From Candidatus Kapaibacterium sp. (GTDB taxonomy: Bacteria > Bacteroidota > Ignavibacteria > Kapaibacteriales > UBA2268), in assembly GCA_963665665.1 (NCBI GenBank), contig OY762428.1, forward strand, positions 3,104,001 to 3,168,000: a stretch of DNA of 64,000 nt. Direction: 5' to 3'. The notes beneath the pieces are model-generated. The model saw only the letters and a list, made by a program, of their open reading frames with translations, was not told the origin of the DNA and ran no database searches. Made by a program: the position numbers and the translations under genes. Of the stretch, positions 22,006 to 55,143 are shown one piece after another. Each line of letters begins with the position of its first letter. Within the stretch, counting starts at the first letter, position 1.

Positions 22006-22235
22006 ATTTTTACCTTTTAATATTATTTATAATAAAATTATACGATATTCAGTTTTATCAAATTCAAATATTTTCAAAAATAATTCTATTAAACCTGAAA
22101 AAAAAATTCAGGAACATGTTTAAAACTTATCAGGCTAAAAAATATTTTGCAATTTTTGTAACTATTTTGTAAAAATCTGTGTAGTTTATTTAATTGTAAA
22201 AGATAAAAATTGATTGACATAAAATGGAATTCATT

Positions 22236-24983
22236 ATGAAAAAGATTATCACCTTATTAATTACTCTCTCGACAGTTTTGATTTTTGGCAGAATGCAGAT
22301 ATTTGCCGAAGCTCCTAAGATAAGCCTTGATAATGATTACGGGGAGATTCAACGGCAGTTCAACAAATGGCTTGATACTGCCGACTACATGAATGAAAAA
22401 GGCTGGAAAAACTATGCCCGCTACCTTTATAATAATAGTTTTTATGTTGATAGTAAAGGAAAGCTGGACGTTGAAAGGTTCAGGTTTAACCAGATTGAAC
22501 AGAAAAACAGGAATGACCGTATCCTGGATGATGCCGGGTGGATACCAGCCGGTCCGGGTTACTATGCCCCTTCTTATGATACGCTTTCCGGGCATGGTAT
22601 TGGCAGGTTGAACTGTGTTACTTTCCATCCTGATGACCCGAACACATTTTGGATTGGCGCACCCGAAGGCGGTATCTGGAAAACAGTTAATGCCGGGCAA
22701 AGCTGGATGCCGATGAATGAAGGCTTAACAACTCTTTCTGTTTCTTCAATAGCAGTAGACCCCAATAATACAGATGTAATCTACCTTGGCAGCGGTGATT
22801 TTGATCAGGAGAAAGCTTATTCGTTCAGGGCTCACGGAGTATTCAAAACAACTAATGGCGGACTGAATTGGGAAGAAACCGGGCTTAACATCAATACTCC
22901 CGGATTTAACAGATCTTCAGTCAGGGATTTAGTTGTTTCCCCTGATGGGAACAGCATTCTTGCCGCCTGTTACTTCGGTGTCTGGAAATCACAGGACGGA
23001 GGAATGACCTGGGATACAACTCTTGACTGGGCTATTTGCGATATGAAACAGCATCCCCAAAGAAAAAACGAAGTTTATGCAATGACTCATTTTTCCTGGA
23101 GCCGTGGGCAGGGTTCATGGATAATGAAATCAACGGATTTCGGCGATTCCTGGGAACAGCTCAGCTTTAATACAACCGACAGTATTATGTACGGCAGGAT
23201 GGAAATGGAATTCTCGAATGCTGATCCGGAATACTTATATATACTGTGTGTAGGAGAGCAAATTAACCGTAGAGGTTTTCACGCTCTTCATCGATCAACA
23301 GATGGAGGCGATACATGGGAAATGATGTCTGATATTAATAGCTCTCCGAATATTATGGCATGGTACGACGGTGTTGCGAACGGTGGTCAGGGTACTTATG
23401 ATGTAATGCTGATAACAGATCCTGATGACCGAGATAAAATTTATGTTGGAGGTGTTAATGTCTGGGGATCGGAAGACGGCGGAGCTACATGGAATATTGC
23501 CACACTCTGGCTCAATGCCCTTGGCCCAAGCCTTCACGCGGATCAGCATTATGGTGCTTACCGGCCGCTGGACGGATATTTTTACATCTGCAATGACGGA
23601 GGTATTTACAGGACAAAAGATATTATTCCCGGGAAAACAGAATGGATTACGGAAGTGGTTGATAAAAGCAACGAAGGAGTCAAGCCCGACGCTCCAGTAA
23701 GAAGATTTGAAACAAAGTGGGAAAATATTTCCGGCAATATGGAAATTACCCAGTTCTACAGGATGGGACTTTCGAAAAATCATGCAAATTACGTAACTGC
23801 AGGGGCGCAGGATAATTCCTGCTACTACCTGAACAGTAATGAGGACTGGATTAACTACATACCCAACTATGACGGTATGGAGACAATGATAGATTATACC
23901 AATCCTGACAGGATATTTGGCGCCTGGCAGTTTGGCGGGCTTTGCCGTTCCGAAGACGGAGGTAAAACGGTAGATAAAAACATTACTTATGAAATTAATA
24001 ACTCCGGGGAAAGAGGCCAGTGGATAACACCTTACGCCATGGATCCGAATAATCCCGATATTATATACGGCGGCTACAGGAACCTGTGGCGGACAACCGA
24101 CGGCGGCGATACATGGCTGAAAATATTTAACGTGGATGAATATATCCAGGAAACAGGAAATACCAATGGTATGAGCGATATTGAAATATCCCGAACCGAT
24201 CCGGAAAGGATCATTATTTATAAATCGCCTTTTTATAACTGGAATCTCGATACTACTTTTATCCATGAAATGTATATGAGCAGGGACGGCGGAAATTCAT
24301 TTGAACCAGTTACTCAGTTACTTCCGGAATCAATTAATTTAGTAAACGATATTGAAATTGATGACGATGACAGCGACCATGTATGGATAGTAGGTACTGC
24401 CGGAAGCCTGGGCGGAGTTATGTACGAATCGAAAGACGGCTGCCAGACATGGGAAAACAAGAACAAGGCTATGATATTTCCCGGAGCGAATTATGCAGTT
24501 GTACTCGACAGCAGAACAGATGAAAATGTGGTCTACGTAGGCAACGAGGGTGTGGTGTATATGACATCCGACAGTATGGACAAATGGGAAACCTACAGCA
24601 AGGACCTGCCACTATCAAGGGTTTACGAACTGGAAATAAATTATCCCTCCGAAAGAATTTATGCCGCCACATACGGCCGAGGCGTATGGTACGCACCGCT
24701 ATTCGATCCGAATGTATCGGTAGATGATAATCAATCCGGTGAAAGCAGCCTGAAAATAAGCCCCAACCCTTCGAAGGACAGGATAGAAGTACAGATTGCA
24801 AATAAGAAAACAACACCGGCTTTGGTTTCTATCATTGATATTAACGGCAGGAGAGTCAGAAATTACAATATGAATATTGAATCCGGGCAATTTACCATCG
24901 AACACGGCTTAAACCCCGGAGTATATTTTATTAATATCACTATTGGCAGTAAAATTATGTCAAGCAGGTTTGTTGTTCAATAG
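22236..24983 (+). CDS. Secreted BNR/VPS10-like beta-propeller protein with T9SS C-terminal domain
   Basis: Many KTxxGGxxW and SxDGGxxW boxes; C-terminal SPNPS...PGVYFINI...RFVVQ. Start 22224 or 22236. Confidence 0.85.
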   Translation: MKKIITLLITLSTVLIFGRMQIFAEAPKISLDNDYGEIQRQFNKWLDTADYMNEKGWKNYARYLYNNSFYVDSKGKLDVERFRFNQIEQKNRNDRILDDAGWIPAGPGYYAPSYDTLSGHGIGRLNCVTFHPDDPNTFWIGAPEGGIWKTVNAGQSWMPMNEGLTTLSVSSIAVDPNNTDVIYLGSGDFDQEKAYSFRAHGVFKTTNGGLNWEETGLNINTPGFNRSSVRDLVVSPDGNSILAACYFGVWKSQDGGMTWDTTLDWAICDMKQHPQRKNEVYAMTHFSWSRGQGSWIMKSTDFGDSWEQLSFNTTDSIMYGRMEMEFSNADPEYLYILCVGEQINRRGFHALHRSTDGGDTWEMMSDINSSPNIMAWYDGVANGGQGTYDVMLITDPDDRDKIYVGGVNVWGSEDGGATWNIATLWLNALGPSLHADQHYGAYRPLDGYFYICNDGGIYRTKDIIPGKTEWITEVVDKSNEGVKPDAPVRRFETKWENISGNMEITQFYRMGLSKNHANYVTAGAQDNSCYYLNSNEDWINYIPNYDGMETMIDYTNPDRIFGAWQFGGLCRSEDGGKTVDKNITYEINNSGERGQWITPYAMDPNNPDIIYGGYRNLWRTTDGGDTWLKIFNVDEYIQETGNTNGMSDIEISRTDPERIIIYKSPFYNWNLDTTFIHEMYMSRDGGNSFEPVTQLLPESINLVNDIEIDDDDSDHVWIVGTAGSLGGVMYESKDGCQTWENKNKAMIFPGANYAVVLDSRTDENVVYVGNEGVVYMTSDSMDKWETYSKDLPLSRVYELEINYPSERIYAATYGRGVWYAPLFDPNVSVDDNQSGESSLKISPNPSKDRIEVQIANKKTTPALVSIIDINGRRVRNYNMNIESGQFTIEHGLNPGVYFINITIGSKIMSSRFVVQ

Positions 24984-26057: not shown

Positions 26058-26882
26058 ATTATATCTCCTTTTGATCAATTTTCCACCCATCTGTAATGAA
26101 TTTTATATCGTTTGGTTCCAAACAGACAGCAATTCTGCCTTTCTCTAATTCAATATTTTCCATGTCTATATGCTAAATATTTTGTAAATGGAAATAATCT
26201 TTTCTATCAATATCAAAACCCAATATACAAAAAAATATGAATTAGAATTAGGGTATATCAATTAATAATGAACTGAGAAAATAAATTCTAATCTTGGTGA
26301 AATATCACTATTATATTCTCTTTTCAGATTAGTGCAAAATGCCGATTTATATAGCCACCTGCTTTAGCTCCTGGTAAGCATTTGAGAATTTATCAGCCGG
26401 ACTTCAGTCCTTTAGATGATATGGGTTAAAAACCGAATAACTAATTCTTTATCTTTCGGGATGTCTCTTTTTTCTAAAAAGTATTTTAAAACCACCCCGC
26501 CCTTCGGGCATCCCTCCGGCGTAGGGGAATCGCCTTAATTTATAATTATCATTAAGTTAATTTCCCTCCCGTGGAGGGGATTAAAGGGGTGGTTCATCGA
26601 TAATATAAAAAAATTGTAAAATAAAAATGCTTGTTATGCTATTAAAAGTCAGCCTCCTGTTGGGATGTAGATTTGTTCAGAAAAGCATTTATGTATTCCC
26701 GTTAATTGGGTGTAAGTTTATTAACTCATCGGATGACTCGGAGTCATCCGATGAGTGATACCCCCCCACCTTTCCTCATAAATAATTACAAAATACTTTT
26801 AAAATCAGCTCTTTAATTATAACACTGCCGAGGCCGTAGATTGCCCGCGTTAATATTTCAAAACATTAGAAAAGGATATATT

Positions 26883-27704
26883 ATGTGGATAGAAATATTT
26901 CGCGCTGGAAAACATACCGACAACGGCGGCCTGACAGCCGAGTTTTCCGAAGCTGATATTGATGAGATTGTCAGAAAGTATAATGCAAAAGACCCGGCGG
27001 AGCAGGCGCCGCTCGTAAAAGGCCATCCGGCACTGGACAGCCCGGCGCACGGATGGGTGGAACGCCTGGCAAGGCGCGGCGGAACAATGCTTGCACGTAT
27101 AAAAAATTTCTCCGATGAGATTGTGGCGGATATCAACGCCGGGAGGTTTCGCAGGGTATCGGTTGCTCTCTACCCGGATATGACTCTGCGCCACGTGGGT
27201 TTGCTTGGCGCTGCCGCCCCGGCAGTGTCAGGACTTCGCCCCGTTCGTTTCTCGGAGTTCGATAATATTAAAGAATACAACTTTGATATTAACCCGGCTC
27301 CGGAGGACGAAGAAAAGGGCGAGCTGCGAACGGAAATCGAAAAGCTGAAGAAAACCGCCCGTCTGAAGGAATTCCGCGAATTTGCCTCCAGGCAGAATAT
27401 AAGCCCGGCATCCGCTGCCAGGCTGGTAGATGCGCTCGAAGCTGCCTACAGGGCTGATGAAGCAAACACCGGGGGCGGAAAATCGGCTGTTGATACAGTT
27501 AAGGAATTCGCGCGAGAATTCAGCAAAGGCCCGGAGTTCGGAGAAATGAAGCAAAGCGCCCCGGCAAACAGGCTGCCGGCGAGAGATTTTTCAGGAACGA
27601 ATACTCCCGAACAGAGAAAGGCACTGCACGAAAAGGCCGTCAACCTGATGAATGCCTCGCCCTGCCTTTCATACGAGGAAGCGCTGCTAAGGGCGTGGGG
27701 GTAA
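26883..27704 (+). CDS. Mu-like prohead protease/scaffold (gpI-like)
   Basis: WIEIFRAG, APLVKGHP...SPAHGWV, RRVSVALY, LRHVGLLGAAAPAVSGL; helical scaffold tail ending SYEEAL. ATG 26883 follows AAAGGA. Confidence 0.85.
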   Translation: MWIEIFRAGKHTDNGGLTAEFSEADIDEIVRKYNAKDPAEQAPLVKGHPALDSPAHGWVERLARRGGTMLARIKNFSDEIVADINAGRFRRVSVALYPDMTLRHVGLLGAAAPAVSGLRPVRFSEFDNIKEYNFDINPAPEDEEKGELRTEIEKLKKTARLKEFREFASRQNISPASAARLVDALEAAYRADEANTGGGKSAVDTVKEFAREFSKGPEFGEMKQSAPANRLPARDFSGTNTPEQRKALHEKAVNLMNASPCLSYEEALLRAWG

Positions 27705-27857
27705 ACGTATTAACCTTCAGAAGGTGGAACCTTCGGAAGGTTGTGCAAAATGACACTCTAACACCAGGGCTCGTCGGGATATCCTTTCAAACCTCTGTCC
27801 TAGGTCCTGCCTGGGATAGTATAAACTACAAAAGCGTTGCTAAGCAGGGGCTTAGCA

Positions 27858-27909
27858 ACGAGAAGAAGAACCTCCCCTTAAATCTCCTCCAATGGAGGGG
27901 AATGAAAAA
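27858..27909. repeat. 52-bp repeat, copy 1 (copy 2 at 29096-29147)
   Basis: ACGAGAAGAAGAACC(T/A)CCCCTT...CAATGGAGGGGAATGAAAAA, about 45 bp upstream of both the capsid and cement genes. Confidence 0.85.
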
Positions 27910-27953
27910 AGATAGATAATTCAGGAACTAATTTAAAATAACAGGAGAACAAA

Positions 27954-28901
27954 ATGTCAACAGCAAGAATAGACGAACTGAGAATGATCGATCCCGTGCT
28001 GTCAACGGTAGCACAGGGATATACAAACGCCGCCATGGTATCAACGAAACTCTTCCCGATAGTGGAAGTAAGCAAACTGAAGGGCAAGGTTCCCGAATTC
28101 GGCAGGGAATCCTTCCTGATACGTGATACTGTAAGGGCAATCCGCGCGGCATCAAACAGGATAGCCCCTGCCGATGTGAACATGATAGAATTTCAGACGC
28201 AGGAAAGAGATATTGAAACAGCGATCGATTACCTTGAGGAAGAGGAAAGCCCGGACTTCCTGCGATACGAGCAGCGCCTGACCCGTGACCTTATGGACAT
28301 ACTCCTGCTGGAAAGAGAAAAACTGGCCGCTGACCTGGCGCAGGATACAGGTAACTACGGCAGCGGGTTAACGAAGACTCTGGACGATAGCAACTGTTTC
28401 GATGATTACAGCCTGGCTATTGATCCCGTGGCGATAATAAAACAGGGGATGATAGCTGTTCGTGAGAAAATTGCAAAGTACCCGAACACAATGGTAATGG
28501 GAGATTCAGTTTACAACGCGCTTACCTCTCATCCGAAAATAATCGAACGGGTAAAATACGCAGGTATCAGCAAAGTTGATGTCGGCGTGTTCAGGGAATT
28601 GTTCGGTATAAAGGATATTCATATCGGCAGGGCTGTGCAAACCGAAGACGGCGCGACATTCAGCGATATATGGCAGGATAATATCATTATGGCTTATACT
28701 GATAAAAATGAAAGGGGCAAACGCAGCGAGTTCAATCCGAGTTTCGGCTATACCTTCAGACGTAAGGATATGCCAGAGGTGGACAGCTACTTCGAGAACG
28801 GCGGCAAGCTGAAAGTTGTCCGCGCCACGGAAAATTATACTATAAAGATCACTGCTCAGGACGCGGCATATCTTATAACCGGTGCTGTGCTGTACGGGTA
28901 G
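27954..28901 (+). CDS. Major capsid protein (HK97 fold, Mu-like prophage type)
   Basis: LRMIDPVLSTVAQGYTN...LFPIV...GKVPEFGRE...RAIRAASN; PNTMVMG, HPKIIER, PSFGYTF; position after the protease. Confidence 0.85.
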   Translation: MSTARIDELRMIDPVLSTVAQGYTNAAMVSTKLFPIVEVSKLKGKVPEFGRESFLIRDTVRAIRAASNRIAPADVNMIEFQTQERDIETAIDYLEEEESPDFLRYEQRLTRDLMDILLLEREKLAADLAQDTGNYGSGLTKTLDDSNCFDDYSLAIDPVAIIKQGMIAVREKIAKYPNTMVMGDSVYNALTSHPKIIERVKYAGISKVDVGVFRELFGIKDIHIGRAVQTEDGATFSDIWQDNIIMAYTDKNERGKRSEFNPSFGYTFRRKDMPEVDSYFENGGKLKVVRATENYTIKITAQDAAYLITGAVLYG

Positions 28902-28987
28902 GGATTGGTCTAAAGGAGACGGTTCTATCCAATTTGTCATTTTGAGCGATAGCGAAGAATCCATTCTTCAACATTTCTCATCAGGAG

Positions 28988-29093
28988 AAGAACCTCCCCT
29001 ATAATCCCCTCCTCCGCGAAGAGGGGATAAGAAATAAATATGTAAAAATTCCCCTCTCGAGGGGTGGCAGCGAAGCTGACGGGGTGGTTCTTT
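28988..29093. repeat. About 105-bp REP-like composite repeat, copy 1 (copy 2 at 32357-32461)
   Basis: AAGAACCTCCCCTATAATCCCCTCCTCCG...AAAATTCCCCTCTC.AGGGGTGGCAGCGAAGCTGACGGGGTGGTTCTTT present twice. Confidence 0.9.
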
Positions 29094-29189
29094 ATACGAG
29101 AAGAAGAACCACCCCTTTGATCCCCTACAATGGAGGGGAATGAAAAACAGAATGAATAAATCAAATAACTACAATCAAAGGAGAAAATT

Positions 29190-29534
29190 ATGTCGGCAAA
29201 TACAAAAACATATCAGCCGGTACAGGCTGTAAGCGTAAAGGCAGCGGAAGACCTTCCGGGGTTTCGTTTCGTATCACATCTCGGATCGGTATGCGCCGCA
29301 GGGGCGAAATCACTTGGCGTACCCGAGGTATCCTGGAAAGAAGACGAACAGGCGGCGGTGATAACTCTTGGCACTATTGCCGTTGAAACATCGGAAAGTA
29401 TCAGTGCCGGTGCGAATGTTACATCCGATTCCGAAGGAATGGGCGTTGTTGCTACTGAAGGAGATGCTGTTAACGGCAGGGCGCTGGATTCATGCTCCGA
29501 ACCCGGTTTTGTAAAAATATTACTTGTGCCATAG
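29190..29534 (+). CDS. DUF2190-family capsid cement/decoration protein
   Basis: 114 aa, small-residue rich; FRFV...AGAKSLGV...VITLG...AGANVTSDSEG...NGRALD. Confidence 0.75.
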   Translation: MSANTKTYQPVQAVSVKAAEDLPGFRFVSHLGSVCAAGAKSLGVPEVSWKEDEQAAVITLGTIAVETSESISAGANVTSDSEGMGVVATEGDAVNGRALDSCSEPGFVKILLVP

Positions 29535-29542
29535 GTGACGGC

Positions 29543-29983
29543 ATGGCATATATCAGCGAATCAGATTTTTTAAAAGAATTGTCTTCGGAGGAGCTTGCCC
29601 GGCTTACGGGCGACCCCTCCGGGGCAACGATTGACCACGAGCGCACGGGAATTGCGATAACACGTTCCTGCGCGGTGATTGATACCATGCTGCACGGCAA
29701 ATACGGCGTACCCTTTGCAAGCCCGCCGGAGATAATAATAAAGATTGCGGCTGACCTTGCGGTGGCGCATTTGCTTGAGTTTTATTACAAGTCATCGAGT
29801 TTGCCTCCTACAATTGCCTGGCGCAAGGTGAATGCCATGAACCTGCTGAAGAAAATTGCCGCAGGGGAAATTATCCTGACGGGATATACCGCTACCTCAG
29901 ACGCTCCCCCGGCAATAGTCTGCAGAACCAGGCAGCAGCGGCTGTTTTCGGATGAAGTACTGAACAATTACGGAGATGATTAA
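29543..29983 (+). CDS. Mu gp36/DUF1320-like head-tail adaptor
   Basis: MAYISESD...EELARLT...IDTMLHGKYGVP...IAADLAV...AMNLLKKIAAGEI. ATG 29543. Confidence 0.8.
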   Translation: MAYISESDFLKELSSEELARLTGDPSGATIDHERTGIAITRSCAVIDTMLHGKYGVPFASPPEIIIKIAADLAVAHLLEFYYKSSSLPPTIAWRKVNAMNLLKKIAAGEIILTGYTATSDAPPAIVCRTRQQRLFSDEVLNNYGDD

Positions 29984-30272
29984 AATGAAAAGCAAAATTC
30001 AATATATAACAAGATACGGTGTGTGGATGCTGATTGGCTTATTTACCTTCCTGCTTCTGATGCCACGCTCCGCCGAGCTGAACACACTGCTGCTTATACT
30101 CCTGATCGAGTTCACGGCAATAGGGCTGTCGGGCCTTGCGGCTTATGTTTACACCAGGGTTGATTTCACCCGGGAATACACCCGCCACGAGCTTGGGTTG
30201 ATTTTTCTTGGCGTGCACATCTGCGCCGGCCTTACCATGACGGGAGTGTATTTTACGCAGTTTATGGTATGA
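29976..30272 (+). CDS. Small three-TM membrane protein, putative holin
   Basis: Three hydrophobic segments in under 100 aa, upstream of the CHAP lysin; function inferred from context. Confidence 0.5.
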   Translation: MIKMKSKIQYITRYGVWMLIGLFTFLLLMPRSAELNTLLLILLIEFTAIGLSGLAAYVYTRVDFTREYTRHELGLIFLGVHICAGLTMTGVYFTQFMV

Positions 30273-30350
30273 GTAGGGGTTTTAGAGATTTTCTCAACCA
30301 CCCCTTTTTTCCCTCCTTGAAAAGGAGGGGAGAAGAAACGAATATAAAAA

Positions 30351-30548
30351 ATGAGGCTGCCTCGAAAGCCTGAAAAGCGGTCATTTCCCGACAAGCCGGG
30401 ATCTTCGACTGAGCATGGTGAAGAATCCATAACCCGCATGAATACTGGATTCTTCACTTCGCTCAGCCTGCCCTCAGCCTGCCCCGATGTGTCGGGGATT
30501 TATCGGGGAATGACAAATTTCCAAAAATCGGAATAGTGAGGCATCCCG
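30351..30548. repeat. About 190-bp MITE-like composite element, copy 1
   Basis: Near-identical to 31598-31784; begins ATGAGGCTGCCTCGAAAGCC, ends GAG(G/A)CATCCCG; contains a GTCATT...GAAGAATCC/GGATTCTTC...GAATGAC palindrome. Confidence 0.9.
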
Positions 30549-30595
30549 TTTAGGGGAGATAGAAGTATTATTCAAAAAAACATAAGAGGTAAAAA

Positions 30596-31180
30596 TTGAA
30601 AACAAATATGCTAATAATATTGATATGGCTGCTGCCGATGATAGGTGATGCTGCTGAAAAATATGAACTGAGATGTCTGCCGGGATTACTGGAAGAATCC
30701 ATGAAAATTGCTATTGATCAGGCCGGGACGCTTGAAAGCGGAAAGAACTCCGGCGCTGTGGAAAAATACCTGGAATCGGTAGGGTTGAAACCCGGAAACC
30801 CTTACTGTGCTGCCGGACAATACTACTGCTTTCTGAAAGCCGCGCGGAAGCTGGGATTGAGCATAAGATCAATACCAATTCCGCGTACAGGCCTGGCAAA
30901 TGCAATTTTCAATCATGCAAAGAAATACGGTAGAAAGGTTCCTTACAAACCAGCAGTTCACGACCTTCTGATATACAGGAAAGGCCGTACCCGCTTCGGC
31001 CATGTGGAAAGGATAATAGAAACGGGCCGCGCAGGCTGGGTGAAAACTATTGCATTCAACGTCAGCAGTATTGTTGATGGCAAGAAGCGGGAAGGAGTGT
31101 TTATCCGCAAAAGGAATATTTATCATCCGCTGGCGGCTATGTTCGTGCGCGGGCTTGTAGGATTCAGGGAAAGGGATTGA
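30596..31180 (+). CDS. CHAP-domain peptidoglycan hydrolase (putative endolysin) with signal-peptide-like N-terminus
   Basis: E-x-GKNSG...YL...GNPYCAA (catalytic Cys) and GHVERI (His); TTG start after AAGAGGT. Confidence 0.75.
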   Translation: MKTNMLIILIWLLPMIGDAAEKYELRCLPGLLEESMKIAIDQAGTLESGKNSGAVEKYLESVGLKPGNPYCAAGQYYCFLKAARKLGLSIRSIPIPRTGLANAIFNHAKKYGRKVPYKPAVHDLLIYRKGRTRFGHVERIIETGRAGWVKTIAFNVSSIVDGKKREGVFIRKRNIYHPLAAMFVRGLVGFRERD

Positions 31181-31181
31181 C

Positions 31182-31541
31182 ATGATAAGGAAGATATGTG
31201 AAAACCACCCCATGGACAGCGATTATGACAACGGAAGAATACTTACGAATCAGGGTAGTTTTCCCGGTAGGAATAAGCAGATAAAACTAAAGTCCTGGGA
31301 AATTTCATGGGACGGCGCAGCTGGAACTTTGGACGGAACGATTAATATATACGCTTCCAATTCGGGGCACAGTGAATCCCGAATTCAAAGCATCAACGTC
31401 GGCAGTGCATCAAACACAGACGACTGTGTTCTTGATGCTCCGATAGTTGATTCGGAATTCATTCGCTTTGAATATACTGCGCATTCTATCACTGCCGGAA
31501 CGCTGAACATTGTGTTGTTTTATGATTCGATTAATCCGTAG
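31182..31541 (+). CDS. Hypothetical beta-rich protein in the phage module
   Basis: 119 aa ORF starting 1 nt after the lysin stop; alternating beta-strand pattern. Confidence 0.55.
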   Translation: MIRKICENHPMDSDYDNGRILTNQGSFPGRNKQIKLKSWEISWDGAAGTLDGTINIYASNSGHSESRIQSINVGSASNTDDCVLDAPIVDSEFIRFEYTAHSITAGTLNIVLFYDSINP

Positions 31542-31563
31542 GGGCGACCCTTGTGGTCGCCCT
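31538..31563. repeat. GTAG-type REP, copy 1 (identical copy at 32313-32338)
   Basis: GTAGGGGCGACCCTTGTGGTCGCCCT: GTAG tetramer plus hairpin, at or just after stop codons. Confidence 0.9.
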
Positions 31564-31597
31564 CATCTAAGATTCTGGGATAAGAACCACCCCTGTA

Positions 31598-31784
31598 ATG
31601 AGGCTGCCTCGAAAGCCTGAAAAGCTGTCATTTCCCGACAAGCCGGGATCTTCGACTGAGCGTAGCGAAGAATCCATAACCCGCATGAATACTGGATTCT
31701 TCACTTCGTTCAGCCTGCCCCGATGTGTCGGGGATTTATCGGGGAATGACAAATTCCCAAAAATCAAAATAATGAGACATCCCG
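31598..31784. repeat. About 190-bp MITE-like composite element, copy 2
   Basis: As copy 1 but without the 11-bp TCAGCCTGCCC duplication. Confidence 0.9.
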
Positions 31785-31868
31785 ACTTAGGGGTGGTTGG
31801 GAAAATATTTGGTGATTCGGAGACTTTCCATAAACGAGATGTTGAAATAATATAAACCATAAAGAAAT

Positions 31869-32306
31869 ATGAAGAAAACAATACTAATATCGCTTCTGTC
31901 CTTCGCCTTAGGGATATTCACCGGATTATCCTTTGTCGAAAAAGGTAGTGTATCAGTGCAGGAAAAAATTGTTCGCGACACGGTTATTAAAACCATAAGG
32001 CCCGAGCCGCTGGTAATTGAAAAAGTAAAAGCCCGGAAGGTATTTATCCGCGATACTGTTATTGTGTCAAGGCCATACATAGCAATTGTGGATACTGTTG
32101 TGAGAAAGGATACTGTCCGGGCTGAGTATGAATTCCCGATGAACCTGTTTAGCTTAGATATACGCCGCGCCGCCGATTCCGTGAAGATAGAAACAATTAC
32201 CATCAGCAAGTACATAAAAGAAAGTCGCCCCTGGTGGGAGTTGCCTTTGTCGGTGGCAGCCGGAGCCGGAATCGGATACCTGGCAGGCAGTGCGGGTAGG
32301 GATTGA
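31869..32306 (+). CDS. Membrane-anchored phage protein, possibly spanin/Rz-like
   Basis: N-terminal TM, repeated RDTV/KDTV motifs, C-terminal WW plus Gly-rich hydrophobic helix. Confidence 0.45.
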   Translation: MKKTILISLLSFALGIFTGLSFVEKGSVSVQEKIVRDTVIKTIRPEPLVIEKVKARKVFIRDTVIVSRPYIAIVDTVVRKDTVRAEYEFPMNLFSLDIRRAADSVKIETITISKYIKESRPWWELPLSVAAGAGIGYLAGSAGRD

Positions 32307-32571
32307 TATTCTGTAGGGGCGACCCTTGTGGTCGCCCTAATTTTAGATGAGGGGAAAAGAACCTCCCCTATAATCCCCTCCTCCGTGAGGCGGGGATAAG
32401 AAACAATTATATAAAATTCCCCTCTCTAGGGGTGGCAGCGAAGCTGACGGGGTGGTTCTTTTTTACTCAAAGAAAGATGGATTCTTCAGTCGCTTCGCTC
32501 CTGAAGCCTGCCCCGACCTGTCGGGGAATGACCGCAGAATGAATAAATTAACTACAAACAAAGGAGAAAAA

Positions 32572-33708
32572 ATGAAAACGGCAAAATACCTTACAAGTGA
32601 AATATTTAAACAGAACTCGGCATATTATATGCACAGGGATATACTGCCCAACCCGGATAAAATTCTTGCCAGGAATGGAGGAAGCAGCGGCATATACGCT
32701 GATCTGAAGAACGATCCCCACGTTTGGAGCTGCATACAGTCACGCAAGAGCGGCCTGCTCTCGCTGGATTTCAATATCGTTCCGAACGGAGTCTCATCCG
32801 GTGTGCAGAAAGAAATTGAAAAGATAATAGCCGGGCTGGATATTCGCAGCCTCCTATCGGACATACTCGAAGCGCCGCTGTTCGGCTGGCAGCCCTTAGA
32901 AGTGATATGGAAAAGGCATGAAGAAAATAGCAGAATGATAATACCGGACAGGATAGTCCCGAAACCGAGGGAATGGTTCTATTTCAACAGCGAAGGGAAG
33001 CTTTACATGCGCCAGCCCGGCAGTATCGACGGCGAAGCTGTGCCGGAAATGAAACTGCTGCTGCCACGCCATGCCGAAAGCAGCGAAAACCCCTACGGCA
33101 GCGCCCTGCTTGCAAAATGCTACTGGCCCGTTACATTCAAGAAGGGTGCCATGAGATTCTGGGTAAACTTTGCCGAGCGCTACGGAATGCCGCTGCTAAT
33201 CGGGCAATATACGCGGGGCGCAACAACAGCCGAGGCCGAAAAACTGGCTGGCGAACTTGCCTCCATGACCGAGGACGCTGTGATAGTAACCCCATCGGAT
33301 ATTGACATAAGGATGCAGGAAGCCGCCCGGACGGGATCGGCGGAACTATTCAGGGAACTGATAAAAATATGCAATGCCGAAATATCCAAGGCGCTGCTTT
33401 CGCAAACGCTGACAACGGAACTGGACCGCGGCTCCTACGCCGCCTCCGAAACGCACTTCCGCATACGCCGCGAGGTGATACTGGCAGACCTGCGCCTTGC
33501 CGAATCGGTAATAAACGAACTGATAGGCTGGATATGCCGCCTGAACTTCAGCAGCGCGGGACAGCCTTTATTCCGGGGCGTGGTGAACGATTCGGATAAT
33601 AACGCCCGCGCAGAACGCGACCTGAAACTGTGCCAAACGGGGCAGGTAAGCTTCACAAAGAAATACTGGATGGATACTTACGGCTTCCGCGAAGAAGATT
33701 TGGAGTGA
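32572..33708 (+). CDS. Portal protein, Mu gp29/DUF935 family
   Basis: LPNPDKIL, DPHVWSCIQSRK, ILEAPLFG, NPYGSALL, FAERYGMP, CNAEISKALLSQTLTT, GSYAASETH. ATG 32572 follows AAAGGAG. Confidence 0.9.
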   Translation: MKTAKYLTSEIFKQNSAYYMHRDILPNPDKILARNGGSSGIYADLKNDPHVWSCIQSRKSGLLSLDFNIVPNGVSSGVQKEIEKIIAGLDIRSLLSDILEAPLFGWQPLEVIWKRHEENSRMIIPDRIVPKPREWFYFNSEGKLYMRQPGSIDGEAVPEMKLLLPRHAESSENPYGSALLAKCYWPVTFKKGAMRFWVNFAERYGMPLLIGQYTRGATTAEAEKLAGELASMTEDAVIVTPSDIDIRMQEAARTGSAELFRELIKICNAEISKALLSQTLTTELDRGSYAASETHFRIRREVILADLRLAESVINELIGWICRLNFSSAGQPLFRGVVNDSDNNARAERDLKLCQTGQVSFTKKYWMDTYGFREEDLE

Positions 33709-34282
33709 GGGGCGGGGGAGTATTTGTTCTACCTTCCGTCCTTGCAGGCAGAATTAAGGACTGTCTCCGTATTAGATAAAAATTTTAAAATTTGAATAAT
33801 ATAGCCACGTGCTTTAGCTCGTGGATGGGAGTAATAATTACTCAACCTCAGGGTTAACCCTGAGGCTAAATAATGGCTTAAAAGAACTACTCTTATCTCC
33901 ACGACTTGAAAGTCGTGGCTATTTCCATCCTTCCAAAGTTGTACCTGGAAAGGAATTTATCCTGTAAAGTTCTTCTTGGGAATTACCGAAGCGCAGAAAT
34001 AATCAAACTGCATTGCGAAGCCGGGGCTTCGCAACGAGGTGAATAAAAGTCTTGGCTATTTGGAAGAATATTTTGGAAAGTTATCATAAGATGTCCAACA
34101 ACTTTTTGGCGTTGGACATCTATTCCAAATAGCTTATCGGGTGGGATAAATTGTTGAATATGGCCCGTTCAAAAACCATAAATATCAAGATAAATTCTTA
34201 TTTCTTTCAAAAATATTTATTATATTACCTTCAGTGATATTATCATAACCCTTTGGCATTTATAATATATTTGAATCATATC

Positions 34283-35308
34283 ATGAATAATCGGGAAAAT
34301 ATTGATTCCACTCTGTTCGCGGAGCTGTCGGCGATAATCGAGCAGGGAAAGCAGCAGGCGGCAGTCAGGGTGAACAGCGTAATAACAGTTACCTACTGGC
34401 ATGTCGGGAAAACAATAAACGAGCATATATTGCAGTATAAAAGAGCCGAATACGGGAAAGAAATTGTATCATCAGTCTCGATACAATTAGCGGAACAATA
34501 CGGAAGAAGTTTTGAACTCCGAAATTTACGTAGAATGATGCAGTTTGCAGATCTGTTCCCTGATGTTAAAATTGTGTCGCCACTGGCGACACAATTAAGC
34601 TGGTCGCATTTTATTGAGGTACTAAAGATAAAAGATGATAAAGCCCGATTATATTATTTGGAGAAATCAGCAGAATCAACATGGAGCAAGCGCGAACTCC
34701 GCCGCCAGATTGAACGCAAAGCTTATGAACGCTCGGAAATTGCAAATACACAGATAATAACAACAGCGGATGAATTCTCGGAAATATCCGGAGTTTTTAA
34801 AGACCCGTATTTTCTTGATTTCCTGGGGCTGAAGGAAGGCTATCTTGAAAATGACCTGGAGTCGGCTATAATCAAAGAACTTGAGAACTTTATTTTGGAA
34901 CTTGGCAGGGGATTTTCATTTATTGAAAGGCAAAAGCGAATTATTCTTGATGGCAAAGATTTTTATCTTGATCTGTTGTTTTTCCATCGTAAGCTAAGAA
35001 GGCTGGTTGCCATCGAGCTTAAACTGGGCGAATTCAAACCAGCCTACAAAGGACAAATGGAGCTTTACCTGAAATGGCTGAACAGATATGAAAAGCAGGA
35101 AGGAGAGAACACGCCTATCGGCCTGATTCTGTGCGCCGAGGCAAGCAGGGAGCAGATTGAGCTGCTGGAAATGCACAAGGACGGCATTATGGTGGCGGAA
35201 TACTGGCCGGAACTTCTGCCAAAAGAAATGCTGGAACAAAAGCTCCGGAGCATTCTGATTGAAGCACGGCAGCGTTTGGAGAATATGAAATTGGAAAGGG
35301 AATATTAG
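34283..35308 (+). CDS. yhcG: YhcG/DUF1016-family PD-(D/E)XK nuclease
   Basis: YWHVG, RAEYG, NLRRM, LSWSH, KDPYFLDFL, FILELGRGF, DLLFFH, IELK, GQMELYL, PIGLILC. ATG 34283. Confidence 0.9.
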   Translation: MNNRENIDSTLFAELSAIIEQGKQQAAVRVNSVITVTYWHVGKTINEHILQYKRAEYGKEIVSSVSIQLAEQYGRSFELRNLRRMMQFADLFPDVKIVSPLATQLSWSHFIEVLKIKDDKARLYYLEKSAESTWSKRELRRQIERKAYERSEIANTQIITTADEFSEISGVFKDPYFLDFLGLKEGYLENDLESAIIKELENFILELGRGFSFIERQKRIILDGKDFYLDLLFFHRKLRRLVAIELKLGEFKPAYKGQMELYLKWLNRYEKQEGENTPIGLILCAEASREQIELLEMHKDGIMVAEYWPELLPKEMLEQKLRSILIEARQRLENMKLEREY

Positions 35309-52196: not shown

Positions 52197-52496
52197 TCAC
52201 GAAATATTGATTCCTTTCATTATAAGCTGTTCCTGCAGGTGGTTCTTAAGCACCCTGCCCCGATAGGTTAAGCGTGAGAAGCTGCATTCCCGACCGTTCA
52301 GAATAGTGCCGCGCAAAAAGCCCTGCTCAATAAGCCGGCGGGCGCCTCGGTATATATCCTGATCGCTGTATTTATTCAGTAATTTATTTGTTTCCGATAC
52401 AGATTCGAGAATAAGATAAAGTAACTCATCGGAAAATTTTGGTTCCGGTTCCATGTCGTCGAAAAATGGCTGTTCAAATTCAATACTTCCTATCAT
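52197..52496 (-). CDS. Small winged-helix-like protein
   Basis: LIEQGFLRG...RLTYRGR winged-helix tail; ATGA overlap with the upstream S24 gene. Confidence 0.5.
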   Translation of the reverse strand: MIGSIEFEQPFFDDMEPEPKFSDELLYLILESVSETNKLLNKYSDQDIYRGARRLIEQGFLRGTILNGRECSFSRLTYRGRVLKNHLQEQLIMKGINIS

Positions 52497-53071
52497 TGAT
52501 TTCCTCCCGGTTCAATTCCAATAACTTTAGCAAAAATTCTGAAATTCCTGCATTTTTCAATCGGGACGGGCGGGTATTTGCGGTTTTCGGATACAAGATA
52601 CTTTCCGTTTCGTTCCACGATATATTTTTTAATAAACAGCCTGCCGTCCACTTCTGCAATTATTATATCTCCGCTTTTGCACTTCTTTCCCGGTGCTATA
52701 ATTGCCTTCATGCCTTCGAAAATTCCTGCTCCCTGCATTGAATCCCCGTATATCATGCATTCCTTCAGCTCTGAAATATTGATATTTTCAGGTATGCCGG
52801 GCATTTCAGTTTCTGAATAAGACAGGCGAAAGGGACGCAGCGGGGCATTGAGCCCGAGTATCGTGCCTGTCAGTATGTATTCCGCGTCTTCTTTGGCGTT
52901 TTCAAATGCATCCGACCCGCGTTGCAGGCATTCCCTGCTTAGTATTTCAAGCCTTTCAATATCAGGCCTGCCCGATTCGGCACCGCCGAGCAGGTATTTC
53001 CTGCTTAAGCGGTATATATCGGCATCCGGGGCCATTGCTGCCCAATCCCTGAATTCAGCCTTAGTCATCAT
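52493..53071 (-). CDS. S24 (LexA/CI-type) peptidase with unrecognised N-terminal helical domain and no HTH
   Basis: YGDSM (Ser), GDIIIA, LFIKK (Lys), LVSENRKYPP. ATG 53071 overlaps the end of the HTH gene (ATGATGACTAA). Confidence 0.8.
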   Translation of the reverse strand: MMTKAEFRDWAAMAPDADIYRLSRKYLLGGAESGRPDIERLEILSRECLQRGSDAFENAKEDAEYILTGTILGLNAPLRPFRLSYSETEMPGIPENINISELKECMIYGDSMQGAGIFEGMKAIIAPGKKCKSGDIIIAEVDGRLFIKKYIVERNGKYLVSENRKYPPVPIEKCRNFRIFAKVIGIEPGGNQ

Positions 53072-53483
53072 TTTTCTTTCTCTGGTTAAGAATGTCGCCT
53101 GCAACGGCGCTTATCAGTTCCAGCTTTTCGTCCATACTCATTTTTTTTGTATCCAGGCTGGCACTGCCAATCGGGATAACCTTATCGTTATGAAATACTT
53201 CACTTTCTTCAAGGCGTTCTTTCAGTATTTTGCCGGCACGGTTGGCAGCAAAAATACTTTCCTCGCCCGTAAGTATAAAAACCGGGTTTATACCTTTGCG
53301 GTAGAGCTTAACAAGAAGTTCCGGGGGAACTCCGGAACGCCCGTTTTCGTAATTGCGGATCTTGTCCTGGCTGACATTAAGCAATTGGGCAAACTGCGAA
53401 GCCGACAGCTTCACGCCCTCGTTGAATATGTTTACCCTGATTTCCCGCAGCCTTCTGCCAATTTCTATTCCTATCTTATCCAT
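53061..53483 (-). CDS. XRE/CI-like helix-turn-helix regulator
   Basis: IGRRLREIR...FAQLLNVS...IRNYENGR...INPVFILTGE. Confidence 0.85.
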   Translation of the reverse strand: MDKIGIEIGRRLREIRVNIFNEGVKLSASQFAQLLNVSQDKIRNYENGRSGVPPELLVKLYRKGINPVFILTGEESIFAANRAGKILKERLEESEVFHNDKVIPIGSASLDTKKMSMDEKLELISAVAGDILNQRKKNDD

Positions 53484-53616: not shown

Positions 53617-53856
53617 ATGCAACAATCAAAGCAAAATGCAAGTGCTGCCGACAGGCTGGAGAAGGCCGGGGAAATTCTCGGGAGTGCCCTGAAGGAAGCC
53701 GAGAGCAAAAAGCTGATAAGCCCCACTTTAAGGTCGGACCTTGAGTTTATAATTGGCGATTTTCTGTTTTCATCAAGCGGGAACGATGCTGAAATCAACT
53801 TTCTTATGTTAAACAATAATGGCTGGGAGCCTGACGGTTATGAACAGTGTTTTTGA
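53617..53856 (+). CDS. Small hypothetical protein
   Basis: 79 aa, AAGG RBS, overlaps the Mor-like gene. Confidence 0.5.
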   Translation: MQQSKQNASAADRLEKAGEILGSALKEAESKKLISPTLRSDLEFIIGDFLFSSSGNDAEINFLMLNNNGWEPDGYEQCF

Positions 53857-54106
53857 TCAGATACGCGAAGATGAGCTGACTGACGATTTGAAGCTGGTAT
53901 CAAAAGTTGTAGGAATTGATGCTGTAAGAAAAATATTGAAAGATTTTGGCGGCCTGAGTTTTTACATCCCAAAGCTAACACGGCTGGATGGTTTCGTGGA
54001 CAGGTACATGAAGCAAAACAGGAATAAAACAGCCAAGCAGATAGCTTTGGACCTTGGCGTGTCCGAGCATTACCTGCGCAGTGTCAGGAAAAGGTTTGGT
54101 AATTGA
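53840..54106 (+). CDS. Mor/C-family transcription activator (phage Mu type)
   Basis: DL...VVGIDAVRKILKDFGGLSFYIPK dimerisation motif plus C-terminal HTH (KQIALDLGVSEHYLR). Start 53840 (GGGAG upstream) or 53819. Confidence 0.8.
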   Translation: MNSVFDQIREDELTDDLKLVSKVVGIDAVRKILKDFGGLSFYIPKLTRLDGFVDRYMKQNRNKTAKQIALDLGVSEHYLRSVRKRFGN

Positions 54107-54690: not shown

Positions 54691-55143
54691 CTAAATGAGT
54701 GAATGTACCACGTGGCGTACTTTGCCCTGTATGGTGAAAGACATTTCCGGGCTTATCTCAATTGGCAGGAAACGGCTGTTTTCCGATTGCAGATAATAAA
54801 CACCTTTTTTTTCAATCAGCCTTTTTACTGTCAGCTCACCGTTCAGAGACGATATAACGATATCGCCGGGGCTGGCAGTATTACATTCCTCAACGATGAG
54901 TATATCCCCGTCGAATATATTTATATCTATCATACTTTCGCCGTTAACCCTTACAAGATAGAAATTATCCTGGTTTCCTGGCAGAAGGTATTTATAAAGG
55001 TCGAGGTCGCCGACATTATTTACCCCGGGAATTTTTCCGGCGGGGAATGCTGCATCGAGCAGGGGAGCTTCGAAGCGAAACCTCCTTCCTATCGAACCAA
55101 ATTTATCAGCCGATAATTTTTTGCTTTTATAAGAAACTTTCAT
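54691..55143 (-). CDS. umuD: UmuD-like S24 autoprotease, catalytic dyad intact
   Basis: PAG cleavage site, VRVNGESM (Ser), DGDILIV, TVKRL (Lys); no DNA-binding domain. Confidence 0.7.
   Translation of the reverse strand: MKVSYKSKKLSADKFGSIGRRFRFEAPLLDAAFPAGKIPGVNNVGDLDLYKYLLPGNQDNFYLVRVNGESMIDINIFDGDILIVEECNTASPGDIVISSLNGELTVKRLIEKKGVYYLQSENSRFLPIEISPEMSFTIQGKVRHVVHSLI

Follow-up and report, generated by a model that had tools for sequence, protein, structure and literature searches.

The 64,000-nucleotide stretch analysed here (the window), from the genome of a Candidatus Kapaibacterium sp., carries at 26883-33708 a module of phage head and lysis genes, all uninterrupted, all on the + strand and mostly preceded by SD-like sites. 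The head genes come first, i.e., a Mu gpI-like head maturation protease/scaffold (26883-27704; phrog_976, E 6e-46; 70/80 related loci), the major capsid protein of the Mu gpT/HK97 fold family (27954-28901; phrog_1005, E 7e-88; PF03864), a cement/decoration protein (29190-29534; PF09956, E 1.3e-5; phrog_673; 69/80 loci) and a Mu gp36-type head-tail adaptor/head completion protein (29546-29983; PF07030, E 1.4e-17; phrog_195; 60/80 loci). They are followed by a holin-like small membrane protein (29976-30272; 47/80 loci), in whose translation three hydrophobic stretches are seen (3-TM) and whose 43% identical paralogues adjoin CHAP in both prophages of the source genome, and by a CHAP-domain peptidoglycan hydrolase with an N-terminal signal/anchor (30596-31180; 60/80 loci), which matches PF05257 below the cut-off (E 1.5e-4) and has a 50% identical prophage paralogue that matches endolysin PHROGs. 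Next come a conserved 119-aa beta-sandwich resembling the XepA N-domain (31182-31541; 46/80 loci) and a spanin-like protein (31869-32306; 49/80 loci), modelled by AF2 with an N-terminal TM helix, a beta domain and a C-terminal TM helix, and 44% identical to paralogues within prophage lysis cassettes. The AF2 model of the beta-sandwich (pLDDT 91) has PBSX XepA as its top structural match (Z 10.4, rmsd 2.9, 105 residues aligned; YomS, Z 8.5), and the protein may be an accessory component of the lysis cassette. The Mu-type portal is encoded last (32572-33708), matches PF06074 over positions 3-336 of 336 (E 2.5e-93), and has only two other portals beside it in the source genome.

Profile matches and coordinates thus bear out the intact head-plus-lysis set described in the first-pass annotation. 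The absence of terminase, Mu gpF, tail and mobility genes, also claimed there, holds for the window ORFs of at least 90 aa, among which no match to terminase, MuF, tail, transposase, integrase or replication families was found. The module is not a near-identical copy of an active Mu-like phage: the nearest cultured phage capsid (BcepMu-like) is 42% identical, and the best IMG/VR match is 47% identical.

The spacers of the module (249-327 nt) are, as had been noticed at first sight, filled with repeats; these are short, host-wide hairpin repeats, with 2 to 129 copies per spacer elsewhere in the genome. The protease-capsid spacer (27705-27953) contains repeat families D1, D6, D8 and D10 and has 2 matches elsewhere, and the capsid-cement spacer (28902-29189; hairpin repeats of families D5, D9 and D15) has 88. 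Short-read contigs break at the latter, approximately 200 nt of which are duplicated 5′ of the portal gene, where the spacer at 32307-32571 (D5, D7, D9 and D15; 129 matches) shares repeats with 28984-29187. One copy of a 124-nt repeat lies in the spacer at 30273-30595 (D2-D4; 37 matches) and a second in that at 31542-31868 (D2-D4 and D7; 43 matches). Because the ORFs at 30351-30536 and 31598-31855 fall inside this 96% identical repeat, they are probably not real genes.

Dispersed partner genes and a common upstream element

It had been predicted that partner modules would be dispersed in the chromosome, and this proved correct for the terminase and the Mor-type gene, whereas no tail cluster was found anywhere. 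The orphan large terminase gene lies 1.39 Mb from the module, and the Walker A, Walker B and nuclease motifs of the protein are invariant. At E 1e-40, terminase is present in 118/130 family genomes, a count that includes prophage paralogues. The gene stands alone in 15/15 loci examined, adjoins the module in 5/80 loci and, in one genome, is located directly 3′ of the Mor-like gene.

The Mor-like small protein, a candidate late-gene activator, is encoded 20 kb downstream of the module (53819-54106, + strand). The ORF seen in the first pass is thus real and has the phyletic pattern of the module, but its assignment to Mor stays below the Pfam cut-off (PF08765, 18.1 bits against 24.9); a profile of its orthologs has Mu Mor (1rr7) as its top PDB match (E 0.006). 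It is present in 114/130 family genomes, always as one copy, and is paired with a repressor-like HTH/S24 cassette. The divergent neighbour encodes an HTH protein of the Xre/cI type (53061-53483, - strand; PF13560, E 7e-8), whose ortholog adjoins the Mor-like gene in 7/7 relatives' loci. Directly downstream of it is the gene for a protein with an S24 peptidase domain of the self-cleaving LexA/cI type (52493-53104, - strand; PF00717, E 3.7e-17); an S24 match follows the HTH gene in 5/7 of these short loci.

Upstream of the protease gene, a promoter-like region (26791-26851, + strand) combines the element AAATACTTTTAAAATCAGCT with a Bacteroidota-type -7 box (TAGATTGC) 37 nt downstream. This arrangement, with the spacing fixed at 37 nt, recurs in 32/45 protease-upstream regions of relatives, and in a search of the whole 5.46-Mb genome with a composite model of element and box, the module site ranks third of 11 sites. 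The element reaches at least 10 bits upstream of 7/15 terminases versus 34/524 control upstream regions (Mann-Whitney p 1e-4). Upstream of the source genome's own terminase, the element scores only 7.4 bits and the region fails the composite model. One putative regulatory element, as defined from these upstream sequences, thus precedes the head operon as well as many of the terminase genes.

The search for tail genes and other missing parts was negative throughout. In the source genome, tblastn with all prophage proteins revealed no third copies of tail genes, a third MuF gene was likewise absent, and a small terminase could not be recognised; there was no orphan tape measure in this genome or in five complete relatives, and a screen of GC-outlier ORFs yielded no conserved tail gene. 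Within this context, it might be asked whether the heads borrow tails, i.e., whether the gp36 adaptor docks onto the tails of infecting or resident siphophages with Mu-like heads, much as happens with the capsid-forming PICI satellites. The purpose could be the spread of host DNA or a defence in which the phage is sabotaged. Two prophages of the source genome do carry long tails together with a homologous gp36 adaptor (phrog_195), a portal 41% identical to that of the module, protease and lysis genes, and the adaptor gene is under selection (dN/dS 0.12) although no tail is encoded. However, tape-measure-bearing prophages (PF10145, used as a control; 0-4 copies) are patchy, occurring in 30/130 family genomes (23%), whereas the module is near-universal (86%), and therefore the helper would usually be missing from the genome; sheath genes occur in 5/130. 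In addition, no integrase, replication or helper-sensing genes adjoin the module in approximately 100 loci, and the terminase is unlinked, unlike in cf-PICIs. Tail borrowing is thus an unlikely explanation.

Phyletic pattern, selection and descent

Far from being absent from close relatives, the capsid gene is present in 112/130 family genomes, nearly always as a single copy (90/100 high-quality family genomes; 50/55 genera). When the other genera of the family are compared with genomes of sister families, the capsid gene is found in 33/36 versus 1/24, the terminase in 33/36 versus 1/24 and the Mor-like gene in 33/36 versus 3/24. All three are absent together from g57 (two genomes), g3 (three genomes) and g26 (one genome); the only terminases in g3 are prophage-type, with at most 40% identity. 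At the thresholds used here, 11 genomes have the Mor-like gene without the capsid gene, and nine have the capsid gene without the Mor-like gene. A few copies contain stops (one capsid gene, two Mor-like genes and one terminase, the last with a premature stop).

The rearranged order, in which the portal follows the lysis genes, is also a family trait, being identical from protease to portal in 49/49 other loci that hold both ends. The module is therefore not an assembly chimera, and in a relative approximately 95% identical, from a different study, contigs reach into the module from both sides.

In two pairs of species with both flanks in common, every gene of the module has a dN/dS within 0.025-0.26 (0.16 and 0.12 for the protease/scaffold, 0.044 and 0.025 for the capsid protein, and 0.058 and 0.041 for the portal). 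Elsewhere in the set, the values are 0.098 and 0.053 for the terminase, 0.057 and 0.058 for the Mor-like gene and 0.127 and 0.057 for the HTH gene. The module, then, does not evolve neutrally, and the proposal that its genes are kept by host selection is supported by these values together with near-universal presence in the family. The missing tail, MuF and transposition genes are what neutral prophage debris, with decay still to come, would also look like; nonetheless, such a reading is scarcely credible and was rejected in the light of the selection and distribution data, including intact frames in at least 100 genomes spanning rpoB identities of 66-81%.

The capsid tree agrees with host taxonomy: 5/5 multi-species genera are monophyletic (SH-aLRT 99-100; 0/200 shuffles as good), and distances correlate with those of rpoB (Mantel r 0.62, p 0.0004, n=17). 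Of the congruence expected for capsid and portal, only the capsid part was recovered, since the Mantel correlation was not significant for the portal (r 0.30, p 0.08, n=13); nor was it for the terminase (r 0.17, p 0.29, n=10). The GC content of the module (0.48-0.50; genome mean 0.386) is above that of the flanks in 36/43 loci and tracks it across 0.27-0.49 (r 0.87, 43 loci). This tracking, together with the host-wide repeats in the spacers, is consistent with long residence in the hosts. The module flanks differ between genera and in some within-genus comparisons, and therefore the module may have been relocated in the past.

These variable flanks and the elevated GC, as well as the classification as viral of a few 5-7 kb IMG/VR contigs with 41-47% identical capsids, could also point to a mobile satellite or defective prophage that moves horizontally among members of the family and owes its apparent conservation only to success. 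Nevertheless, this is very improbable: the module is single-copy, its genus-level clades agree with host taxonomy, its GC is ameliorated to each host, and its dS in the two species pairs (0.26-0.87) is read as equal to that of the shared flanking host genes (0.49-1.14). There is no mobility gene, the recurrent 371-aa neighbour family being histidine kinases, and with essential parts at unlinked loci the set cannot move as one unit. As judged from the sequences, three unlinked loci (the head-lysis-portal operon, the solitary terminase and the Mor-like gene with HTH/S24) agree in their phyletic pattern, and all of them are intact and subject to purifying selection.

A candidate DNA-packaging particle and its relatives

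It is highly probable that the system is domesticated and functional. Our slightly favoured view is that the host owns the system, a multi-locus remnant of a Mu-like phage passed on vertically, and that the Candidatus Kapaibacterium-type family maintains it to make capsids. The best reading of the product is a host-owned, multi-locus, probably tailless particle that would package DNA and be released by lysis; that it is indeed DNA-filled and lysis-released has a little more than an even chance of being right, whereas true gene transfer between cells is a tentative suggestion, with appreciably less than an even chance. Thus, the term "domesticated" appears well supported, and "GTA" denotes a candidate function. 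The set is a strong candidate for a gene-transfer-agent-like particle that is new and arose independently, in an uncultured bacterial family.

A stress signal might remove the HTH/S24 repressor-like proteins, perhaps through SOS-type self-cleavage of the S24 protein. The Mor-like activator would then bind the conserved element, which lies immediately 5′ of the -33 region, and in part of the population would switch on both the terminase gene and the head-lysis-portal operon. Procapsids would form on the portal with the protease/scaffold, and the terminase, with its intact ATPase and nuclease motifs, would fill them with DNA, most likely that of the host because there is neither a small terminase nor a phage genome to recognise. 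The portal would be closed by gp36 and the shell stabilised by cement, and the holin, CHAP lysin and spanin would lyse the producer and let the particles out. Since no tail is recognisable, DNA delivery, if any, would depend on a short tail that has escaped recognition, on borrowed tails or on the recipient's own uptake.

It is also conceivable, though rather unlikely, that the capsid serves altruistic lysis/eDNA release, DNA disposal or as a protein/nucleic-acid container, the particle being a by-product or a storage shell. Lysis genes that are no less conserved than the head genes, and the failure to find a delivery apparatus, would fit such a use; so would the source genome, in which the module is without the fibre-like and ConA-lectin-like genes found within the operon of many lineages. 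In those lineages, however, the same genes favour target binding, and particles bearing their products could attach to cell surfaces, while an intact portal, adaptor and terminase with conserved motifs favour DNA packaging over an empty shell.

In RcGTA-type gene transfer agents, phage-derived structural genes, lysis genes included, are fixed across a whole lineage under purifying selection, with no replication/integration module. GTAs are reported to have a GC content slightly above the host background, and RcGTA itself is of HK97-like siphophage origin and controlled by the host proteins CtrA/GafA. The RcGTA type of Alphaproteobacteria is described as having a multi-locus "genome" (PMC5026251). 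The Kapaibacteria set resembles it in lineage-fixed structural genes that are under purifying selection and split over unlinked loci, in having lysis genes and no replication/integration module, and in GC slightly above background. It differs in that its head has an independent, Mu-like origin (Mu portal, gp36, gpI/gpT-like), its host belongs to the Bacteroidota/FCB lineage, its apparent control is by a Mor-like activator and an HTH/S24 cassette, no tail genes or recognised small terminase were found, and its function is a putative one. With Mu/BcepMu-like phages it shares the portal (PF06074), gp36 (PF07030), protease/scaffold and capsid families and the Mor-type late-activator candidate; however, it has no transposase, MuF, small terminase or tail genes, its portal gene comes after the lysis genes (before the protease gene in Mu), its terminase is unlinked, and it is inherited vertically with the host.

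FpGTA and GTA-like packaging in gut Oscillospiraceae and Ruminococcaceae, recently recognised, were found through packaged host DNA (PMC12946183). Like the candidate system of the Kapaibacteria, FpGTA is a GTA-like capsid system outside Alphaproteobacteria, but the two differ in phylum and phage ancestry, and host-DNA packaging has been measured for FpGTA, whereas the Kapaibacteria set is seen in its genes. The cf-PICI satellites similarly combine head, portal, protease, adaptor and packaging genes without a tail. They are mobile islands with an integrase, regulators, replication genes and the terminase inside the island, whereas here mobility genes are lacking, terminase and regulator are dispersed, and distribution follows host phylogeny. 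PBSX, an SOS-induced defective prophage, packages random host DNA into a killing particle with a full contractile tail. In B. subtilis PBSX, XepA is a lysis-cassette protein (PMC6834076). Both PBSX and the Kapaibacteria set appear to be host-kept phage remnants with a XepA-fold protein in the lysis cassette, but PBSX is confined to a single locus and a single species group, and its head is of a non-Mu type.

Head and putative lysis genes of the module

The nine-gene head-plus-lysis module that the first-pass annotation had proposed at window positions 26883-33708 does consist of nine real, uninterrupted genes on the + strand. In order, these encode a Mu gpI-type protease/scaffold (phage protein family phrog_976, E 6e-46), the major capsid protein (phrog_1005, E 7e-88), a cement protein, a Mu gp36 adaptor (PF07030, E 1.4e-17), a short holin-like protein with three TM segments, a CHAP hydrolase, a conserved protein of 119 aa, a protein with both an N- and a C-terminal TM helix, and a Mu-type portal matched by the whole PF06074 profile (E 2.5e-93). 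Thus, of a Mu-like head module, the portal, gp36, gpI-type protease/scaffold, and gpT-type capsid are present, whereas MuF (PF04233), which was sought beside the portal, is absent. The supposed lack of terminase, MuF, tail, transposase, integrase, and replication genes also held, as none of the window ORFs scanned gave a match. MuA/MuB transposition genes and a complete late region were found neither among these ORFs nor beside the module in related loci, and replication or integration genes were found neither among these ORFs nor at approx. 100 related loci. The GC content of the module (0.48-0.50) exceeds the genome mean (0.386).

The spacers described as filled with repeats are 249-327 nt long and carry hairpin repeats. 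Because these repeats are found at 2 to 129 other places in the 5.46-Mb single-contig genome, they are host-wide elements rather than phage sequence. Two ORFs (30351-30536 and 31598-31855) lie inside a 124-nt duplicated repeat and are probably spurious. A further stretch of approx. 200 nt is duplicated with 87-98% identity upstream of the cement gene (28984-29187) and the portal gene (32353-32570); the duplication takes in the last 34 nt, including the ribosome-binding site, so that the two genes share one leader.

Within the putative lysis cassette, the CHAP protein scores below the Pfam cut-off, and its prophage paralogue matches endolysin PHROGs. For the holin-like and spanin-like proteins, TM topology was read from the sequence and from an AF2 model, in which the beta domain of the 145-aa spanin-like protein is framed by an N- and a C-terminal helix, an architecture that fits an envelope-spanning role. 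The 119-aa protein, encoded between the holin-like/CHAP and spanin-like genes, is confidently predicted to form a beta-sandwich (pLDDT 91); its model, of XepA-like fold, is best matched by the N-terminal domain of PBSX XepA (Z 10.4, rmsd 2.9, 105 residues aligned), followed by SPBc2 YomS (Z 8.5), and a Foldseek search against the PDB gave only weak jelly-roll/CBM matches. XepA and YomS are both described as proteins of prophage lytic cassettes (PMC6834076). The predicted likeness to these proteins is moderate and does not in itself establish a function.

The source genome also carries two prophages, approx. 89% identical to each other (86-92% in blocks), at contig positions C1:2898951-2939791 and 4382451-4416034 (loci L001-L006; C1 is the contig of the source genome). 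On one strand, they encode terminase, Mu portal, and MuF, and on the other protease, decoration, capsid, gp36, a TM protein, CHAP, and a spanin-like protein, behind which come tail genes and a tape measure of 1722 aa. Since the prophages share the layout in which the lysis trio follows the head genes, this layout is native to this phage group, and only the position of the portal is odd in the module, whose order had been taken for rearranged. In total, the genome has three Mu portals (two in prophages and one in the module), two MuF genes, both in the prophages, with no third PF04233 copy, and three large terminases. The prophages additionally carry ParB, PAPS-reductase, and methyltransferase genes, and their late region contains T9SS cargo genes that resemble host genes (697 aa and 453 aa).

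Several other genes of the window may be mentioned for completeness. The portal gene is adjoined by a YhcG/DUF1016 PDDEXK nuclease gene (34253-35308) with at least 12 scattered paralogues in the genome (28-35% identity), and a pair comprising an EcoO109I-type restriction endonuclease and an N6/N4 DNA methylase lies in a low-GC patch at 3896-5528. A large T9SS-secreted protein of the BNR/sortilin type is encoded at 22224-24983, on the protease side of the module. Similar genes are found there in several genera (for example, L020:11698-15189, L068:4771-8700, and L069:11288-15217 in relatives) and are directly adjacent and divergent in three loci; this proximity may be due to chance within a paralogue-rich family.

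Conservation and inheritance across the family

The comparison of 18 loci cut from relatives, and then of 80 more, revealed the same genes in the same order. Synteny, which had been suggested as a check, was borne out: all 49 loci with both protease and portal have a single order, i.e., protease-capsid-cement-gp36-TM-CHAP-119aa, a variable slot, spanin, and portal. The slot accommodates genes missing from the source genome, namely those for a fibre-like protein with weak matches to tail-fibre PHROGs in 14/80 loci, a ConA-lectin-like protein in 5/80, and a 98-aa protein in 16/80. In one genus (g66, loci L058-L061), the module is in two parts, one with the protease, capsid, and cement genes and the other with the genes from gp36 through spanin, approx. 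6 kb off on the opposite strand, or elsewhere. The flanks differ between genera and in some comparisons within a genus, and no integrase or replication gene is adjacent to the module in any locus examined. It should be noted that contigs of an approx. 95% identical relative from a second study run into the module from both flanks; these short-read contigs stop at the spacer repeats and therefore provide no independent confirmation of the joins. The joins are confirmed by the conserved order in other genomes, which speaks against a chimeric assembly. A look-up of data sets containing the module yielded no RNA run. At 8/80 loci (L070, L072, L081, L087, L088, L093, L096, and L107), a histidine kinase or hybrid kinase is encoded within a few genes of the module. 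Phosphorelay control of gene transfer agents (GTAs) is known; the kinase genes may be there by chance.

The source genome is the sole representative of its genus in the collection searched, and the capsid gene is present in 33 of the 36 other genera of its family vs. only one of the 24 genomes from the other families of the order. Family-wide, it occurs in 112/130 genomes, 90/100 high-quality genomes, and 50/55 genera, almost always as one copy with 38-62% identity to that of the source genome, and one copy contains a stop. The genera g57 (two genomes), g3 (three genomes), and g26 (one genome) lack all three loci, i.e., the module, the orphan terminase, and the Mor-like gene discussed below; the terminases of the g3 genomes are of the prophage type only. 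At the thresholds used, Mor was found without capsid in 11 genomes and capsid without Mor in nine, many of these being incomplete assemblies. The same genomes give a clear contrast between prophage and domesticated genes, as the former are found in 23% with a variable copy number vs. 86% with a single copy for the latter.

Selection was assessed in two species pairs in which the module is bordered on either side by common host genes. The dN/dS values of the module genes (0.025-0.26, with dS 0.26-0.87) indicate purifying selection and may be set beside those of the common flanking genes in the same pairs (0.035-0.23, with dS 0.49-1.14), the dS of the module being similar to that of the flanks. 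Congruence with the host phylogeny, which had been suggested as a check for both capsid and portal, was found for the capsid. All five multi-species genera are monophyletic in the capsid tree (35 rows, SH-aLRT 99-100), none of 200 label shuffles were as good at genus monophyly, and pairwise capsid identities correlate with those of rpoB (Mantel r 0.62, p 0.0004, 17 genomes, after dropping genome G008, from which no rpoB ORF was recovered). The correlation with rpoB was not significant for the portal (r 0.30, p 0.08, n=13) or for the terminase (r 0.17, p 0.29, n=10). An earlier test, restricted to a single genome for each genus, could resolve little (Mantel p 0.05, 0.015, and 0.09). At the 43/80 loci with capsid, protease, portal, and 4 kb or more of flanking sequence, the GC content of the module tracks that of the flanks over hosts ranging from 0.27 to 0.49 (r 0.87), exceeding it by a median of +0.024. 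Taken together, the particle genes are phage-derived, fixed in the host chromosome, vertically inherited, and under purifying selection, with their GC content ameliorated to each host.

An orphan terminase and the search for a tail

The first-pass annotation had supposed that further modules might be dispersed in the chromosome, as in known GTAs. For the terminase, this was borne out: a third large terminase (C1:1737833-1739224, GC 0.557) stands alone between genes for a T9SS-secreted VWA protein and a beta-lactamase-family protein, 1.39 Mb from the module. Its orthologs (39-56% identity) occur in 33/36 genera vs. 1/24 genomes outside the family and are solitary among unrelated neighbours at 15/15 loci examined. 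It adjoins the module in 5/80 loci, where it follows the portal (three loci) or the 119-aa gene (two loci). The Walker A, Walker B, and nuclease motifs are invariant, and dN/dS is 0.098 and 0.053. As its parts are unlinked and no replication or integration gene was found among the window ORFs scanned or at approx. 100 related loci, the gene set would be unable to propagate itself.

An orphan tail cluster, on the other hand, was not found. When all ORFs of prophage 1 were compared with the genome by tblastn, the only genes with third copies were those for protease, portal, terminase, and lysis proteins, and no orphan paralogue of a tail gene appeared. The tape-measure family PF10145 matched both prophage tape measures in the source genome and no third protein, and none of five single-contig module-bearing relatives had a match above the cut-off. 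Family-wide, PF10145 is found in 30/130 genomes (0-4 copies, including genera without the module), and the sheath family PF04984 is found, patchily, in 5/130; these counts also illustrate the distribution that ordinary prophage genes have in these genomes. Apart from a screen for GC outliers (23 high-GC ORFs compared with Pfam, 15 of which were then compared with PHROGs), the search covered two families of tail proteins and a single tblastn of the genome, so a tail that is short or of a novel type may have been missed. A 281-aa high-GC ORF gave a weak tail-fibre match, and fibre-like and lectin-like genes lie within the operon of some lineages. A pair of 429/416-aa ORFs with a weak "major tail protein" match was rejected as a candidate, as it belongs to a 9-copy family found in only 10/36 family genomes. 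This family, which also includes a 304-aa member, has a high GC content (0.53-0.56), nine matches in the source genome (C1:2118616-2119905, 1351435-1352685, 3453483-3454397, and six more; L152, L153, and L155), and 13 copies in one relative, and it may be mobile or diversifying.

Candidate regulatory locus, shared upstream element, and relation to known systems

The Mor-type activator gene that had been noticed approx. 20 kb from the module is an ORF at window positions 53819-54106. Its reading frame and location stand, and its match to the Mor family falls below the Pfam threshold for PF08765 (18.1 bits vs. the 24.9 cut-off, profile positions 26-93 of 107). The best PDB match of a profile built from its orthologs is Mu Mor (1rr7, E 0.006). 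This Mor-like gene is present in 33/36 genera vs. 3/24 genomes outside the family and, always once, in 114/130 family genomes; its dN/dS values are 0.057 and 0.058. A divergent HTH gene faces it in 7/7 relatives' loci and is followed by an S24 peptidase domain in 5/7; the arrangement in the window is the same, with the HTH gene at 53061-53483 and the S24 peptidase-domain gene at 52493-53104. In one genome, the Mor-like gene lies directly upstream of the terminase. Just past the Mor-like locus, there are two more stand-alone S24 peptidase genes (UmuD/LexA-like; 54691-55143 and 55169-55597), giving three S24 domains within 3 kb.

In relatives, a Bacteroidota-type -7 box (TAnnTTyGCA) is found upstream of the protease gene. 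Both motifs are present in 45 sequences, and in 32 of these the element AAAnnnTTTTAAAAnnGTTT starts 37 nt ahead of the first position of the 24-nt scoring window containing this box. A matrix of the element was trained on those 56 of 68 protease-upstream regions with a clear -7 box, and it scores at least 10 bits upstream of 7/15 terminase genes vs. 34/524 upstream regions taken from these loci as controls (Mann-Whitney p 1e-4). In the source genome, a composite promoter model gave no sites at the first thresholds used; it later gave 11 sites genome-wide, mostly inside genes, with the module promoter ranking third and no new phage-like target for the regulon among the 11, and the upstream region of the genome's own terminase fails the model. 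The top-ranking site, above the module promoter, is at C1:1149914 on the minus strand, 274 nt upstream of a 204-aa ORF (1149026-1149640).

Among known systems, a capsid-forming PICI satellite (cf-PICI) has an integrase, a replication module, and a terminase in one mobile island, whereas here no integrase or replication gene is adjacent to the module in any locus examined and the terminase is unlinked in most genomes. The nearest analogue is RcGTA, the example from Alphaproteobacteria: in its gene organisation, the Kapaibacteria system resembles a multi-locus GTA. It has the genomic properties of a GTA, except for a tail, which the searches made did not reveal; as a GTA, its particles would package random fragments of host DNA too short to span the coding set and would deliver them to recipient cells. 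It is possible, although we would rather bet against it, that this is a further independently evolved GTA. No earlier one would then derive from a Mu-like phage, come from Bacteroidota/FCB (here Kapaibacteria), or lack a recognisable tail, and in it a retained phage switch (HTH/S24 repressor-like proteins and a Mor-like activator) would coordinate at least three unlinked loci via a shared promoter element.

The phage-particle systems known to have been domesticated independently amount to a handful, each of which has altered views of horizontal gene transfer in its hosts. No description of the Kapaibacteria capsid system was found in the searchable literature on GTAs and prophages of Kapabacteria, on GTAs of Ignavibacteria, or on Mu-like GTAs of Bacteroidetes (supplements lay outside the search). 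The system spans a whole uncultured family that, judged by record titles, is common in sediments, groundwater, bioreactors, and mats, and it would differ in having kept a phage-type regulatory switch rather than being wired to host regulators. The apparent lack of a tail raises the question of whether a tailless, DNA-filled capsid might take part in gene exchange or whether the host makes some other use of capsids; the compact set of approx. 12 genes is suited to heterologous reconstitution. The phage ancestor is also different. The closest capsids of cultured phages are those of BcepMu-like phages (42% identical), and the best IMG/VR matches (41-47% identical) lie on contigs of 5-7 kb.
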